The position numbers and the translations under genes are program-made. Source: an uncultured Planctomycetaceae bacterium (lineage in GTDB: Bacteria > Planctomycetota > Phycisphaerae > SM23-33). From it: a stretch of 64,000 bases of DNA. A model generated the notes under the pieces. That model had not been told where the DNA came from. It searched no databases and saw only the letters and a program-made list of their open reading frames with translations. How positions within the stretch are numbered: position 1 is the stretch's first letter; the number at the start of each line of letters is the position of its first letter. Shown here in pieces: positions 14,263 through 30,382 of the stretch. The stretch covers positions 6,103 to 70,102 of the forward strand of contig CAZIAZ010000003.1 of assembly GCA_964536835.1 (NCBI GenBank), read 5' to 3'.

Positions 14263-14301
14263 GTTGTCTGTATTTTTCTATAGCATATGGTTGGCGGGTT
14301 A

Positions 14302-14459
14302 GAGCATTGAAAGATTGAGAGTTCATATTTTTGCGCCAGTGGGTTTGTTCGTGGCAAGGAAGGAAAATGAGGCATACTTGGCAGTATTCTGAAGTTTTTC
14401 TGACGCAGCCACGGACAAAGCAAACCAGCAAAAAAGGAACTCTCAAGATTGAACTGCTC
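14302..14459. mobile_element. MITE-like non-autonomous element, copy 1 (158 bp, flanked by TA/TA)
   Basis: It is >99% identical to the copies at 23676-23833 and 30208-30365. The imperfect terminal inverted repeats are gagcattgaaagattgagagttc / gaactctcaagattgaactgctc. TA dinucleotides directly abut both ends, and the flanks beyond the TA are unrelated between copies. Confidence 0.7.
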
Positions 14460-14968
14460 TAGGGTGTCGGAGCGTCGTCATTATGTTTTGGATTTTTTCT
14501 GCCGGCTTCGTTTTGGAGTTCTGTAAATAGTTTATCGGTATTAGCCATAAGCCCCAATGCTTTTGCAGGAACTATTACGACCTCAAGGCTGCATGGGGAA
14601 TAAAGCGTAAAAGCATTTTCATCGTTGTCCAATTTGACACTGTAATCATATCTTCCGCCGGTAAGTTCCATTTGTGTCGAGTCGCCCATTTTTATCATTT
14701 TTTCCGGATTAAGCAGCTTGAAGAATTTTTTGGCGAAGCGACTGTCCTGCTGGTAATCTGCGGAAAATTGCAGTGAAGGGATTGAGTTCATGTCATAGAA
14801 TGTGAGATGAAGTTTGTCGCCCTGCTTTACGGCTATGACTTTCTGCCTGTAGTCGATGGTCTTGCTGACGCATTGAATTTCAATTTTGTCGTAATTTGCA
14901 GGGTCGAATTCCTTGCATCCGCCGACAGCCGCAGCAATGCACATAATTGTCATGAACAGATTTTTCAT
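14459..14968 (-). CDS. Putative lipoprotein (hypothetical)
   Basis: MKNLFMTIMCIAAAVGGC is a lipobox-type signal peptide. The internal Met at 14968 is preferred over the ORF start at 15022. Confidence 0.5.
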   Translation of the reverse strand: MKNLFMTIMCIAAAVGGCKEFDPANYDKIEIQCVSKTIDYRQKVIAVKQGDKLHLTFYDMNSIPSLQFSADYQQDSRFAKKFFKLLNPEKMIKMGDSTQMELTGGRYDYSVKLDNDENAFTLYSPCSLEVVIVPAKALGLMANTDKLFTELQNEAGRKNPKHNDDAPTP

Positions 14969-15052
14969 AGCCGCCTCTTTATTGTCCGAAACACTCTGAA
15001 TATGCGCCAGCCAAGCCGGCAAAAAATCAGACTCAGGTAATATCGGTAGTCG

Positions 15053-15634
15053 TCAGTCTTTTTTTGTTATCGGCGGTGGCGGCAACTTCCATGGCCGCCA
15101 GCCGTGCTTCTGCGTCGGCGGGGCAAACAGGATGAATGCCGAAATCAGCATAGCCGCCGAAAGCAGCATATAGCTGCGCCGTTTGCCCTGTTTTTCCAGT
15201 TTGGCTGCGGTTTGCAGCCAGAAAGAGTCCTTATGCGACGGCTGAGGATAATGAATTTCTGATAGAATTTCAGGATTGTCCACCGGCCGGGCCGGGTCGC
15301 GTACGATAATTTCGTCGGGCGTATAAAGCCCAAGACGGGTGCCGGCCAATCGTTGCGTGAGAATTTCGTCGTTCTGCACGTCGCGCATCATGCGGCTGAG
15401 CGCCTGGACGGTTTCCTTAGCCTCCTGCAATCGCAGCGTGTCACGCTCAAGTTCATAGCGGGTTTTTTCTTTTTCAGCCCACGCCGGCAGAAGTACCAAC
15501 GCAGCCAGCAATGTCAGCGCCATGCCGGTCACCACCAAAAAACCAAGACGCCGGAAAAACGCTCCGCCGCCGGATTCCTCAACTATCTCAATTTTGTCTC
15601 CACATCCTTGCGCCATAAACAGCTTTATCTCCAA
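15053..15634 (-). CDS. Hypothetical membrane protein (one TM, Pro-rich C-terminus)
   Basis: The ORF lies immediately downstream of eno with a 47-nt overlap, so the true start is probably internal. It has a hydrophobic segment [12 protein letters not shown] and is a weak call. Confidence 0.35.
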
Positions 15635-16889
15635 GTTTTTCTTCTATCCGTAGAAGTTGGTTATATTTGCACACGCGGTCAGTCCGGCTGGCTGAGCCGG
15701 TTTTTATCTGGCCGGTTTTTTCCGCAACAACCAGGTCGGCTATCGTGGTATCTTCCGTTTCACCTGAACGATGTGAAACCACAGCGGTATAATCGGCACG
15801 GCGGGCCATATTTATCGCCGCCAGCGTTTCCGTCAGAGTGCCAATCTGGTTGACCTTTATGAGGATGCTGTTGGCAACGCCCAGGTCTATGCCTTTCTGG
15901 AGGAAATTCACGTTCGTCACAAAAAGGTCGTCGCCGACGAGCTGTATCTTGTCGCCGAGTCTGTCGGTCAGCAGTTTCCATCCGTCCCAGTCCTCTTCGC
16001 CGCAGCCGTCCTCTATGCTCATTATCGGATAACGGCTGCACCAGTCAACCCATATATCGACCATTTCTTCATTATCGATTATTCGCGACGGGTTCGATTT
16101 GAAGAAACAGTAGCCTTCTCTGCCGAGTTTTCTGGCTTCGTTGGCCAATTCGCTGGCGGCAGGGTCGAGGGCGATGAATATGTCTTCGCCGGGGGCGTAA
16201 CCGGCTTTTTCGATGGCGGTAAGTATCAATTCCGGCGCCTCTTCGTTGCTTTTGAGGCTGGGCGCGTAGCCGCCTTCGTCGCCCACGCCCGTGGAGTAGC
16301 CTTTATTTTTAAGCACACTCTTGAGTGAATGGAAAACTTCAGCTCCCATTTGAAGCGCTTGTCTGAACGTCTCGGCGCCGAGCGGCTGAATCATGAATTC
16401 CTGGAAGTCGACCGTACCATCGGCATGTTTGCCGCCGTTAAGTATGTTCATCATCGGCACGGGCAGGATGACGGAATCGTCATCGCCGAGGTATTCGTAA
16501 AGTTCCAGACCCATTGAATTAGCCTGCGCCCGCGCCACCGCCATCGATACGCCCAGTATCGCGTTTGCACCGAGTCGCGATTTGTTTTTAGTGCCGTCAG
16601 CCTGTATCATGGCATTGTCTACAGCCTTCTGCGCTTCGGCGTCCATGCCGACTACCACGTCACGCAATTCGCCGTTGACGTTGGCTACCGCGTGCAGGAC
16701 GCCTTTGCCGCCGTAGTATTTCGGGTCGCCGTCGCGAAGTTCACAGGCTTCATTTTCGCCGGTGGATGCGCCGCTTGGAACGGCTGCCCGACCCCTTGTG
16801 CCGTCTTCGAGATAAACGTCAACCTCAACAGTCGGATTGCCGCGGGAATCCAGTATCTCTCTGCCGATGATATCAGCTATTCTGGCCAT
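15588..16889 (-). CDS. eno: Enolase (phosphopyruvate hydratase)
   Basis: A 433-aa ORF with [25 protein letters not shown] at the N-terminus. The [15 protein letters not shown] catalytic motif is present. Confidence 0.95.
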
Positions 16890-16940
16890 GATGTACCTCC
16901 AAAAAAGTTGATACGCCGTGTTTTTTGCCTATGTTGTACA

Positions 16941-28701: not shown

Positions 28702-28925
28702 CTTTTTTGTCGTCAATTTTCTATTTGACTACATTTTTGTAGTATCACTGCTTTCGTTACCATCTTTTATCATTAATGTTCTCTTTGATTTTATGTCGAT
28801 AAACATTGTGTAAAATCGATGTATTTTTATTTTTATGGTCTTTGGCATGGCGTGTGCACAGGGAATTCCGAGTTTAAGTTTGTAGCCTTGTTGGCTGCAC
28901 AATAAAGTATTCAGGAGAATATGAA

Positions 28926-29948
28926 ATGGCACGATTAGGAAAGACGGTTCTTAGCCTGGCAGTGTGCCTGGTTGGTGTATCATGGGCGTTGGCGGAGGAT
29001 GCCGCGCCGAAATCACAGTGGCTGTACGCGATGACTGATTCGGAAAAAACGCCTGAAGCTCAAACTATCGACACCATGGACGTAGCTGCGCCGGTCAGCG
29101 AAGAAGGCTGGAAAAAGCCCATTCCGGTTTCATTCAGTGTAGATTACACGCTGGTGAGTGATTATATATTCCGCGGCATTAATTTCAGTGAATATCCTGG
29201 CGAAGGCAGGGAAAAGCCGAATAACCAGATGACCGTAGGCACTGAACTTGATCTCGGATCGTTCGGCTATATTGGCGGTTCGGTCTGGTTTGAGTGGTTT
29301 GCCGGCCAGGAGCATCTTAACAGTGAAGGCGACTCGAAGAATCTCCAGGAAGTGGATTACACCGTTTATTACGGTTACAATATCGAATCAATCGGCGTCA
29401 ATCCTGAAATCGGGTTCATATGGTACGAATTTCCGCGTTGCGATGAAAACTGCGACAGTACGCAGGAACTGACCTTGAACCTGGCATTCGATGAGAGCGT
29501 ATGGCTGCGTGCCATGGGCATAAATATGAAGGAATCGATATTGAATCCCTATCTGTTCATGGCTTTTGATTTGAATCTTGCCGCCGGCGCAAGCTATTAT
29601 GAAACCGGCTTAAGCCATGATTTTGCACTGGCGGACTTAGGCTGTAGTGGTGTACCGGTATTTAAGGATATTACTCTTACTCCTAGCTGGTCGATGTCAT
29701 GGCAGCATAACTGGCTGAACAAGTTTTCGGTCGATTCGAGTGCCGGTTCACGTCGCAACTTCACCAGCATGAACAATATGCAGTGGGGCCTTGATTTGAC
29801 GTATAACATCAAAAATGCGTTCAATATACCCGACAAGTATTGCGGCGAGATGTATGTCAAAGGATTTATTTACTACAGCCAGGCTCTTCAGAATCAGTAT
29901 CTGAATGATGAATTCTGGGGCGGCATGAGCGTAGGTTACAGCTGGTAA
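28926..29948 (+). CDS. Putative outer-membrane beta-barrel protein (porin-like, hypothetical)
   Basis: It has a signal peptide and alternating amphipathic beta-strand patterning. The C-terminal aromatic residue (...SVGYSW) is typical of beta-barrel OMPs. It is preceded by an AT-rich promoter region. Confidence 0.5.
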   Translation: MARLGKTVLSLAVCLVGVSWALAEDAAPKSQWLYAMTDSEKTPEAQTIDTMDVAAPVSEEGWKKPIPVSFSVDYTLVSDYIFRGINFSEYPGEGREKPNNQMTVGTELDLGSFGYIGGSVWFEWFAGQEHLNSEGDSKNLQEVDYTVYYGYNIESIGVNPEIGFIWYEFPRCDENCDSTQELTLNLAFDESVWLRAMGINMKESILNPYLFMAFDLNLAAGASYYETGLSHDFALADLGCSGVPVFKDITLTPSWSMSWQHNWLNKFSVDSSAGSRRNFTSMNNMQWGLDLTYNIKNAFNIPDKYCGEMYVKGFIYYSQALQNQYLNDEFWGGMSVGYSW

Positions 29949-29997
29949 AACTAGAGATTACCCAGGGTTTACTCCCCGAACGCTTCATTCCTTTAGA

Positions 29998-30040
29998 CCG
30001 AAGTTCCGCACGGTTCAGCCGGGCGGAGCTTCGGTTTTTT
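29998..30040 (+). terminator. Rho-independent terminator after the OMP gene
   Basis: CCGAAGTTCCGC-acggttcagccgg-GCGGAGCTTCGG forms a hairpin followed by TTTTTT. Confidence 0.55.
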
Positions 30041-30207
30041 GGTAAAATAGTCGTGTTTTACGGATGCGACAATAAAATGCAATATGATGGACACACCTGG
30101 CTAACTGTTGTCTTGCCAGGCTGGAAAACGGCAGTCAGTCTTTCATCTATAGCGGTTCTTGTGAAAATCTTGGTGCATTTTAAACTTGCTCTGCATCATT
30201 TCTGCTA

Positions 30208-30365
30208 GAGCATTGAAAGATTGAGAGTTCATATTTTTGCGCCAGTGGGTTTGTTCGTGGCAAGGAAGGAAAATGAGGCATACTTGGCAGTATTCTGAAG
30301 TTTTTCTGACGCAGCCACGGACAAAGCAAACCAGCAAAAAAAGAACTCTCAAGATTGAACTGCTC
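30208..30365. mobile_element. MITE-like element, copy 3 (158 bp, flanked by TA/TA)
   Basis: It differs from copies 1 and 2 at a single position (A for G in the run aaaaaaGgaactc). It lies in the convergent 3' region between the OMP gene and lptD. Confidence 0.7.
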
Positions 30366-30382
30366 TAGCTGCAACTTCGTTC

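Follow-up and report, generated by a model that had tools for sequence, protein, structure and literature searches.

The mobility of ERIC and similar TA-flanked bacterial MITEs has been in question for more than 30 years, without any transposase having been linked to them (PMC2229807). ERIC elements (also IRU or RU-1; 127 bp) are intergenic, non-coding imperfect palindromes over their whole length, with TA termini, a target-site duplication and no known transposase (PMC2229807, PMC3184786), and have been described only for the Enterobacteriaceae and Vibrionaceae (PMC10969869). RUP of Streptococcus pneumoniae is the one bacterial case for which an end-matching IS630-family mobiliser, IS630-Spn1, has been proposed (PMC2229807), and the Correia or NEMIS elements of Neisseria are TA-flanked repeats of 104–157 bp with inverted ends, whose hairpin transcripts are processed by RNase (PMC2229807, PMC10969869). 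In one census, 97.4% of prokaryotic MITEs were confined to a single genus (PMC11602168).

The window analysed here, a 64,000-nucleotide stretch of DNA from a member of the Phycisphaerae, contains three copies of a 158-bp repeat (E1), which spans 162 nt when the TA on each side is included:

14300–14461, + strand: E1 copy 1, TA + 158-bp element + TA.
23674–23835, + strand: E1 copy 2, same sequence as copy 1.
30206–30367, + strand: E1 copy 3, with one G>A change.
14302–14324, + strand: inverted repeat at the left end of E1, GAGCATTGAAAGATTGAGAGTTC, forming the outer part of a long stem (P1).
14437–14459, + strand: its counterpart at the right end of E1, GAACTCTCAAGATTGAACTGCTC, matching the left end at 18/23 positions.

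Identity among the copies was 100/100/99% over 162 nt, the sole mismatch falling at position 137 (G/G/A), and no further copies were found when the window was searched. The preliminary description had reported three near-identical copies, each flanked by TA with unrelated sequence further out, placed in intergenic space next to gene 3' ends or in a divergent promoter, and all of this was borne out. The convergent 3' ends of rpoD and the gene at 14462–15022 flank copy 1, with the rpoD terminator on one side and the stop codon of the − strand gene on the other; copy 2 occupies part of the 546-bp divergent region that separates an ABC-F gene (start 23512) from htrA; and copy 3 lies 258 nt past the gene at 28926–29948, its target being a TA within an older element (E4, below). 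The imperfect terminal inverted repeats described previously also exist (18/23 complementary, TAGAGCATTGAAAG-type), but they form only the outer part of an inverted complementarity that, in self-alignment, extends beyond the 23-nt ends and runs the full length of the element. Folded as RNA, the + strand of E1 forms a single hairpin (−65.5 kcal/mol, z = −7.4). E1 is non-coding and within the small-size limit for MITEs (under about 300 bp); its only ORF (ATG at 14366) is not conserved.

E1 shares with ERIC the whole-length imperfect palindrome, the TA termini and the intergenic, non-coding character without a known transposase, as well as the layout of a long stem, a GGCAAG... block, a central hairpin and a ...ACGCAGCC block. 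The two differ in size (158 bp vs 127 bp), in their ends (TA-GAGC vs TA-TACCC), in host (Planctomycetota for E1) and in the central hairpin, which in E1 has another sequence and lacks the ERIC1R and ERIC2 primer sites. Assignment of E1 to ERIC sensu stricto was rejected based on its length (158 bp, not ~127 bp) and a central hairpin unrelated to the ERIC repeat GTGAATCCCCAGGAGCTTACATAAGTAAGTGACTGGGGTGAGCG. RUP resembles E1 as a small TA-flanked bacterial MITE; however, the two have no sequence similarity, no matching autonomous element was found for E1, and no cross-phylum conserved core has been reported for RUP. Correia elements are likewise unrelated in sequence and, unlike E1, are genus-restricted with defined ends of 24–26 bp and an IHF site.

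Public metagenome contigs from this Phycisphaerae organism yielded eight further E1 insertion sites, all beginning TA-GAGC, which brings the total to at least 11 distinct sites with 96–100% identity. This identity across so many sites indicates recent spread, as the preliminary description had proposed from the three copies when it suggested many copies and recent activity. Both of the new full copies have the form TA...TA, so that TA is present on both sides in 5/5 complete copies and on the left at 11/11 sites; a pyrimidine precedes the left TA at 10/11 sites and a purine follows the right TA at 5/5. Across families the same Y-TA-R preference is symmetric (35/45 left and 35/45 right). Elements of the E1 family with the same ends also occur in four other Planctomycetota MAG loci, and one variant (L117/L120) has ends that are complementary at 23/23 positions, its five end mismatches having been converted together. 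The observations thus support the description of E1 as a repeat that is dispersed, non-coding and non-autonomous and has TA flanks.

The insertion at copy 1 contributes to the stop codon of the neighbouring gene:

14459–14461, − strand: TAG stop codon of the gene at 14462–15022, formed by the flanking TA and the terminal G of E1 in the − strand reading.

When E1 and one TA were deleted in silico, the − strand read ...ACACCC TAA, with the restored TAA at the codon position where the ortholog on L105 has TGA; both proteins end in ...APTP. This reconstruction shows that at least one of the two TAs belongs to the host. An empty site was sought among related samples and none was found, the three copies being fixed in every sample examined; the paired TAs may reflect duplication of the target or a single TA that is carried along by the element.

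Three related elements and an end fragment accompany E1 in the window:

30656–30819, − strand: E2, 164 bp including the TAs; same core as E1, different ends.
62928–63089, − strand: E3, 162 bp; ends (TA)AGAGCTTCTAACAAAATGA; same core.
30171–30492, − strand: E4, an older, degenerate E1-like element with its core at 30366–30453.
62785–62833, − strand: E2-type end fragment, 49 bp, 94% identical to 30771–30819 and ending in GGTTCTA.

On its own strand, E2 reads TA-GAACCTATCCC ... GGGATAGGTC-TA and sits past the stop codon of an LptD-like gene, ahead of that gene's terminator, E3 lies downstream of a NUDIX gene, and E4 measures 162 bp after subtraction of E1 copy 3 and one TA. These elements, the full-length hairpin and the asymmetric core that they share had escaped the preliminary description. 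The window thus holds six cores in four end-families, three on the + and three on the − strand; the core, GGCAAGGAAG–hairpin–CTGACGCAGCCA, is matched exactly by the three E1 copies, E2 and E3, and with 2 changes by E4. In E1 copy 1 its parts are:

14353–14362, + strand: 5' core block GGCAAGGAAG, made up of GGC closing P1, unpaired AAGGA, and AG opening P2.
14361–14401, + strand: central hairpin, consisting of P2, a purine-rich internal loop, P3 and a 4-nt loop.
14400–14411, + strand: 3' core block CTGACGCAGCCA, made up of CT closing P2, unpaired GACGCA, and GCC closing P1.

We define the ERIC-like superfamily by GGCAAGGAAG and CTRACGCMGCCA flanking a 30–45-nt hairpin atop a long stem. Its members share an asymmetric internal loop formed by the blocks GGCAAGGAAG and CTGACGC(A/C)GCCA, whose invariance is partly imposed by the exact-match search pattern (divergent cores do exist), and a covarying two-tier central hairpin that changes in sequence between families with its pairing preserved. 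In the core alignment 91.9% of cells were paired, vs 29–54% when partners were slid, with a helix covariation score of 0.544 vs ≤0.125, and the central segment formed a single hairpin in 90/93 distinct cores. The long stem is family-specific in sequence, with usual termini TA-G(A/G)...C-TA. Rfam searches, judged at or near the gathering score, gave no match for the window, only noise for E1 (E = 1.9) and, among seven related loci, no match to the elements save a weak isrH hit (E = 0.037) over the Klebsiella ERIC.

Three other kinds of structured repeat were compared with E1. REPs and REPINs, mobilised by RAYT, are 20–40-bp palindromes tagged GTAG or CGTC that occur as inverted pairs with a RAYT gene; this class was rejected for a single 158-bp hairpin with neither end tag nor a recurrent neighbouring gene. 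PATEs derived from IS200/IS605 have asymmetric ends with subterminal hairpins and insert, without duplication, 3' of a fixed tetranucleotide; they were rejected because the ends and the Y-TA-R flanks are symmetric here. Integron attC sites are imperfect palindromes of 57–141 bp in which the structure of the folded strand, not the sequence, is conserved and recognised. The likeness to attC is by analogy only, in that the structure of one folded strand is conserved over sequence; the R/L boxes (GTTRRRY), cassette arrays and need for IntI that characterise attC were not seen here, and attC lacks TA flanks.

A scan of species-representative genomes with the core pattern returned >102 loci vs about 4 expected by chance, in Verrucomicrobiota, Planctomycetota, Acidobacteria, Bacillota, Sphingomonadaceae, Klebsiella and Rouxiella, some of the phylum assignments depending on MAG binning. 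Most of these loci are 160–170-bp TA-flanked palindromes with many copies per genome; the sphingomonad members share a single orthologous position across 7 or more species. The enterobacterial matches are ERIC elements: the Klebsiella match (L012) carries the ERIC2 primer site at 21/22 bases and matches all 5,426 E. coli genomes, at a median of 12 places each. The Klebsiella and Rouxiella copies fit the 22-position core pattern exactly, and the E. coli copy fits at 18/22 positions, a typical E. coli ERIC carrying GGCAAGCGAG and GCGAACGCAGCC. A covariance model of the wider set did not detect the typical E. coli ERIC, so the link to ERIC rests on the 18/22 core positions, the architecture and the intermediates from Klebsiella, Rouxiella and Desulfuromonadales. 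E1 falls within a large set of 160–170-bp TA-flanked palindromic elements that had not been recognised before, ERIC (127 bp) being the known relative; it is an ordinary kind of mobile element with a conserved folded core.

We consider it likely that E1 is a non-autonomous, TA-inserting MITE of this ERIC-like set, served by a transposase in trans and a cis-acting core. It would insert at TA dinucleotides, preferably Y-TA-R, leaving TA on both sides, and would be moved by a TA-specific (DDE-type) transposase whose gene lies at another place in the genome. The core would act as a putative cis-acting site: a conserved factor required for mobility or persistence would recognise it in a single strand, RNA or ssDNA, that has folded. 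As the preliminary description had noted, the window lacks a transposase, none of its 46 long ORFs having a transposase domain; nor did ∼0.9 Mb of loci sequence contain one, or any longer element bounded by any family's ends, and an end-pattern scan of genome representatives (the home genome not among them) yielded no autonomous element with matching ends, of IS630 or other type. Stowaway MITEs with Tc1-mariner and the IS5 (IS427, IS1031) groups use TA or YTAR-type targets, the IS5/IS427 group having GA/GG ends and YTAR targets. The resemblance of GA/GG to the first bases of E1-like elements, G(A/G), is a lead, and IS5/IS427-type enzymes may be regarded as candidate mobilisers, equally open alongside the IS630 type.

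E1 could instead be a classical IS630/Tc1-mariner-derived MITE, an IS630-family element reduced by internal deletion, with ends that its transposase binds and a core that persists as a passive remnant, such as the ribosome-binding site and the region around the stop codon of a lost gene; we find this possible but doubtful. The TA flanks and symmetric Y-TA-R preference agree with such an origin, as do the ATG that comes after AAGGAAG in E1, E2 and a number of further families and a TGA or TAA inside CTRACGC, and RUP is a precedent for a bacterial MITE mobilised by IS630 (PMC2229807). However, the ATG is missing in most families, the reading frame across CTGACGC (read by eye) differs between E1 and E2, and the searches above gave no IS630-like gene or longer end-matched element. 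Covariation of the hairpin between the core blocks argues that it was selected as structure and is not a deletion scar. Moreover, the ends differ completely between families and the centre is the better conserved, the reverse of what end binding alone predicts, so an end-binding classical transposase leaves this pattern unexplained. Conservation of the core with a stem free to vary is what would be expected of a single-strand hairpin element moved by a structure-recognising enzyme (HUH/Y1 of IS200/IS605, a RAYT as for REPINs, or an integron-attC-like recombinase) that reads the folded core and cuts at the stem base. Likewise, the entire element is one hairpin that pairs both TA-G ends, one strand alone folds well (the core-sense strand was more stable in 60/63 elements and 15/15 families), and the joint conversion in L117/L120 produced perfect complementarity. 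We nevertheless judge this mode improbable, since the Y-TA-R target is symmetric with TA on both sides, unlike that of IS200/IS605, which is a one-sided tetranucleotide without duplication; no HUH, RAYT or integrase gene recurs beside the elements, REP tags (GTAG/CGTC) are absent from elements 4–5 times the size of a REP, and orientation in the window is mixed.

The sense-strand-specific folding and covariation would suit a structured regulatory RNA or 3'-UTR module, acting in mRNA stability or processing and conserved for host function while being copied around, as would the purine-rich internal loops with AAGGA exposed and the single orthologous locus of the sphingomonad members. ERIC transcripts in Yersinia change mRNA decay in an orientation-dependent manner (PMC2229807, PMC10969869). 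Orientation relative to neighbouring genes was, however, unbiased (35 sense vs 27 antisense after 3' ends), which argues against a simple co-transcribed RNA role, and copy 1 is antisense to the sole transcript likely to cover it, beyond the rpoD terminator. Near-identical copies at unrelated TA-flanked sites, one nested in another element, point to transposition, and with no Rfam family matched, a host RNA module appears unlikely. That the repeats reflect misassembly or chimerism is scarcely credible: many short-read contigs do stop inside the element, but all three junctions are reproduced on both sides at 99.9–100% in independent JGI, ENA and NCBI assemblies, and contigs L106–L108, L110, L111, L117, L120 and L121 read through it.

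Beyond the trans-mobilised MITE that we favour, we raise, tentatively and as less probable, that ERIC-type elements, far from being peculiar to enterobacteria, are a branch of an ancient class of mobile hairpins found throughout bacteria and defined by a core, GGCAAGGAAG / hairpin / CUGACGCMGCCA, to which a conserved protein binds. The candidate protein would recognise the strand-specific folded core in RNA or single-stranded DNA, and the ends would need merely to pair and finish in TA-G. If so, mobilisation or maintenance would follow a mechanism distinct from end-binding DDE transposition. A core common to Planctomycetota, Verrucomicrobiota, Acidobacteria, Bacillota and Proteobacteria provides a concrete handle on ERIC-type mobility: it can be used in phylogenetic profiling for a co-occurring enzyme, and it pinpoints mutations for probing mobility or RNA function. 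On the practical side, E1-like repeats break short-read assemblies of such genomes, and contigs of independent assemblies terminate inside E1 or E2.

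Three copies of the 158-bp repeat E1 were located in the window, together with three relatives (E2, E3 and E4) that have the core blocks and layout in common with E1. The core comprises two conserved blocks around a central hairpin at the top of a long stem. The features are as follows.

14300-14461: E1 copy 1, TA + 158 bp + TA, a 162-nt unit
23674-23835: E1 copy 2, TA + 158 bp + TA, a 162-nt unit
30206-30367: E1 copy 3, TA + 158 bp + TA, a 162-nt unit
14302-14355 paired with 14409-14459: long stem of E1, the outermost part of the fold
14353-14362 (GGCAAGGAAG) and 14400-14411 (CTGACGCAGCCA): asymmetric internal loop of E1
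14361-14401: two-tier central hairpin of E1, with a purine-rich internal loop
30171-30492: E4, ∼162 bp, ends unlike E1, interrupted by E1 copy 3
30656-30819: E2, ∼162 bp, ends unlike E1
62785-62833: E2-type end fragment
62928-63089: E3, ∼162 bp, ends unlike E1

Comparison of the copies confirmed the preliminary description of three near-identical, TA-bounded 158-bp units with unrelated flanks: they differ at a single base (G>A at unit position 137, copy 3), and similarity ends exactly at the TA on both the left and the right. No additional E1 copies were detected in the window by sensitive self-BLAST or a covariance-model scan. The terminal inverted repeats described earlier were upheld; the 23-nt ends (TAGAGCATTGAAAG-type) are complementary at 18/23 positions, but complementarity is not confined to the ends and spans all of E1. 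When single-stranded, the + strand forms one hairpin (-65.5 kcal/mol, z = -7.4) with the flanking TA-G paired with C-TA at its base, while the - strand reaches only -51.5 kcal/mol. A known RNA family was ruled out, as neither E1 nor the related loci matched an Rfam family at gathering or permissive thresholds, a weak isrH match over the Klebsiella ERIC aside. A small protein gene (SD-like AAGGAAG and ATG, 31 codons to the flanking TA) was rejected since the ATG and frame are unconserved, as was a neisserial Correia element or DNA uptake sequence, the window being without DUS or USS and the sequence unrelated.

The reported placement of copies beside gene 3' ends or in a divergent region also held. 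Copy 2 occupies the 546-bp region that separates an ABC-F gene from the divergent htrA, and copy 3 lies 258 nt past gene 28926-29948, nested at a TA within the older, degenerate E4. Copy 1 is found beyond the rpoD terminator and adjoins the convergent gene 14462-15022 at its stop codon, a TAG (14459-14461) that consists of the flanking TA and the terminal G of E1. Removal of copy 1 and one TA yields ...ACACCC TAA CCCGCC, with TAA at the codon where the ortholog in the related species L105, which has the same final residues (...APTP), carries TGA. Copy 1 entered at the TA within a TAA stop (14459-14461 with 14300-14301), and the element's terminal G recreated TAG and left the protein unchanged. 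Agreement of the reconstructed TAA with the ortholog's stop codon shows that at least one TA is host-derived and that the insertion was protein-neutral; no closer stand-in for an empty site is available than this reconstruction.

Empty sites were sought in public assemblies using RpoD cluster members and the proteins flanking copies 2 and 3. A protein from Phycisphaerae MAGs matches the window RpoD at 100% identity, with the next relatives at 80%. Home-organism contigs in JGI, ENA and NCBI assemblies carry all three E1 copies at 99.9–100% identity or end inside them, and no empty E1 site was found among the contigs looked up. Since every sampled contig has the element or ends within it, the three insertions are fixed and the repeat is assembly-breaking. 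In the nearest other species (L105, 79% DNA identity), the intergenic region is rearranged. No intact E4 relative usable as a paralogous empty site was found, and no two orthologous loci in the fetched set differed by an element indel. We infer a probable TA duplication at E1. E1 and E2 fragment assemblies of the home organism, and short-read metagenome contigs ending inside one or the other include L103, L104, L109, L111-L116, L118, L119 and L122-L127.

A metagenome scan with the E1 left end returned 11 contigs representing 8 additional distinct home-organism sites. All 8 read TA|GAGC, and both new complete copies are bounded TA...TA. A pyrimidine precedes the left TA at 10/11 E1 sites and a purine follows the right TA at 5/5. 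In an E1 variant from the home organism (JGI; L117:3575-3736 and L120:2824-2985), all five end mismatches were altered together; the right end differs at exactly the five mismatch positions of the window copies, rendering the ends perfectly complementary. This change is concerted and templated, either by arm-to-arm repair of a hairpin or cruciform or by end exchange between inverted copies.

Among species-representative genomes, the core pattern GGCAAGGAAG-N30-45-CTRACGCMGCCA was found at more than 102 loci at the least, compared with a chance expectation of ∼4 matches over the 1.2e12 positions; ∼4 of the matches look like chance. By record title, the hosts were Verrucomicrobiota (including the isolate Brevifollis gellanilyticus, with up to ∼20 loci in one MAG), Phycisphaerae, Planctomycetaceae, Pirellulales, Acidobacteria, Clostridia, Oscillospiraceae, Pelosinus, Sphingomonadaceae isolates, Desulfuromonadales, single Bacteroidota and Patescibacteria MAGs, Klebsiella and Rouxiella, several of these phylum assignments hinging on MAG binning. 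The core was absent from viral contigs. Clustering gave ∼15 families, one of which joins E1 to four loci from Planctomycetota that have its ends and are ∼85% identical. Extended outward from the core, most families are 160–170 bp, TA-flanked and start with G(A/G) (family starts TAGACCGG, TAGAGCA, TAGAAGC, TAGGTAA, TAGGAC and TAGGGTG), with shorter members in ERIC (127 bp, TATACCC) and the sphingomonads (95–110 bp). Across families, the left TA is preceded by a pyrimidine at 35/45 sites and the right TA is followed by a purine at 35/45. The core blocks owe part of their invariance to the exact-match search pattern, and they are less invariant than the scan suggests, given divergent cores in the same Clostridia genomes (L014:3075-3173 and L093:3-110; GGCGAGGCAAAAAG ... 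TTTAACGAAGTCC and GCAAGGCAAAAAG ... AACGCAGTCAGG). An 89-bp Clostridia-family derivative (L025:5551-5639) keeps both arms with the entire core gone, a complete copy lying 3.3 kb away. In many species, the 95–110 bp core-bearing elements of Sphingopyxis and Sphingomonas (L020, L034, L036, L041, L042, L044, L076, L084, L090 and L091) sit next to a dGTPase-like ORF at a single orthologous locus, at 1–2 per genome; being conserved in place, they may have been exapted.

The Klebsiella locus (L012) agrees with the ERIC2 PCR primer at 21/22 bases, and the primer string is present in 365 papers. L012 matched all 5,426/5,426 complete E. coli genomes at ∼89% identity, with a median of 12 places each, all unannotated. 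An E. coli copy (...GGCGGCAAGCGAG-[ERIC hairpin]-GAGCGAACGCAGCC...) has the same arrangement, with 18/22 core positions in common, but a typical E. coli ERIC is undetected by the covariance model of the core. The Rouxiella element and a Desulfuromonadales element have ∼20 nt in common on each side of the hairpin, the hairpins themselves being unlike. ERIC is described as a TA-terminated MITE with target duplication, transposase not known, and published reports confine it to Enterobacteriaceae and Vibrionaceae (PMC2229807, PMC3184786, PMC10969869). According to a 2024 census, 97.4% of MITEs are genus-specific (PMC11602168). E1 constitutes a new family among the ERIC-type palindromic MITEs with TA flanks. 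Our literature search found no account of the shared core, and E1 is of moderate to high interest because this cross-phylum core is unreported. A weak Rfam match to isrH, a Salmonella Hfq-binding sRNA, covers the Klebsiella ERIC copy (L012:336-470, E = 0.037), suggestive of an overlap between the isrH family and an ERIC element.

The core is under selection as a structure, and on one strand. When 94 distinct cores were aligned with the model, copies from one family being non-independent, 91.9% of cells were paired versus 29–54% with the partner slid 1–3 columns; the covariation score was 0.544 versus ≤0.125 with slid partners, and 10/15 pairs had changes on both sides. The inter-block segment is a single hairpin in 90/93 cores (mean 14.3 pairs, mean z -3.9), usually with a purine-rich 3x2 or 2x3 internal loop. 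The GGCAAGGAAG-bearing strand is more stable than its complement in 60/63 elements (mean difference 13 kcal/mol) and in 15/15 families, with 308 G-U pairs versus 168. Covariation would be expected of palindromic DNA alone; this strand asymmetry would not.

Dispersed copies that are nearly identical, the TA flanks, a host-derived TA, the symmetric preference for Y-TA-R and the nesting together point to insertion by a trans-acting, TA-specific DDE-type transposase; IS630-family and IS5/IS427-type enzymes are candidate mobilisers by analogy only. As had been stated, the window holds no transposase (0/46 long ORFs with such a domain). The putative enzyme was likewise not found elsewhere: the E1 end pattern, and hence an autonomous partner, was absent from 185,579 species-representative genomes (a set outside which the home genome falls), the metagenome scan yielded nothing but MITE copies, and among the fetched loci no protein family recurred beside elements and no family ends were paired 300–4000 bp apart except where two separate MITEs supplied them. 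A pure IS630 deletion derivative would share the TA signature and is a tentative possibility. The trans-DDE model leaves unexplained ends that differ wholly between families around a centre conserved and selected as a one-strand fold, so we infer that the core is a putative cis-acting site, recognised either as RNA or as single-stranded DNA.

The one-strand hairpin would also suit an element mobilised by a structure-specific enzyme, which we consider unlikely beside the TA-specific features that favour a DDE-type transposase. Equally improbable is a host-level regulatory RNA; the strand asymmetry would fit, but orientation relative to neighbouring genes showed no significant bias. A consensus scan found no promoter or terminator within E1.

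Elsewhere in the window, the long - strand cluster at 34126-54583 is a polysaccharide biosynthesis locus, with glycosyltransferase, Wzy-like ligase, flippase, GNAT, AAA ATPase, Wzz-like and Wza-like export genes. The longest rpoD ORF encodes 616 aa, and public gene calls of 578 or 555 aa are without its 38–61-residue N-terminal extension (12354-12470); the true start is probably further downstream. Lastly, weak 34-nt direct repeats (2609-2642, 3743-3776 and 4274-4307; 65–71% identity), inside or adjoining heparinase-like and glycosyltransferase genes, probably reflect chance or a common coding motif.
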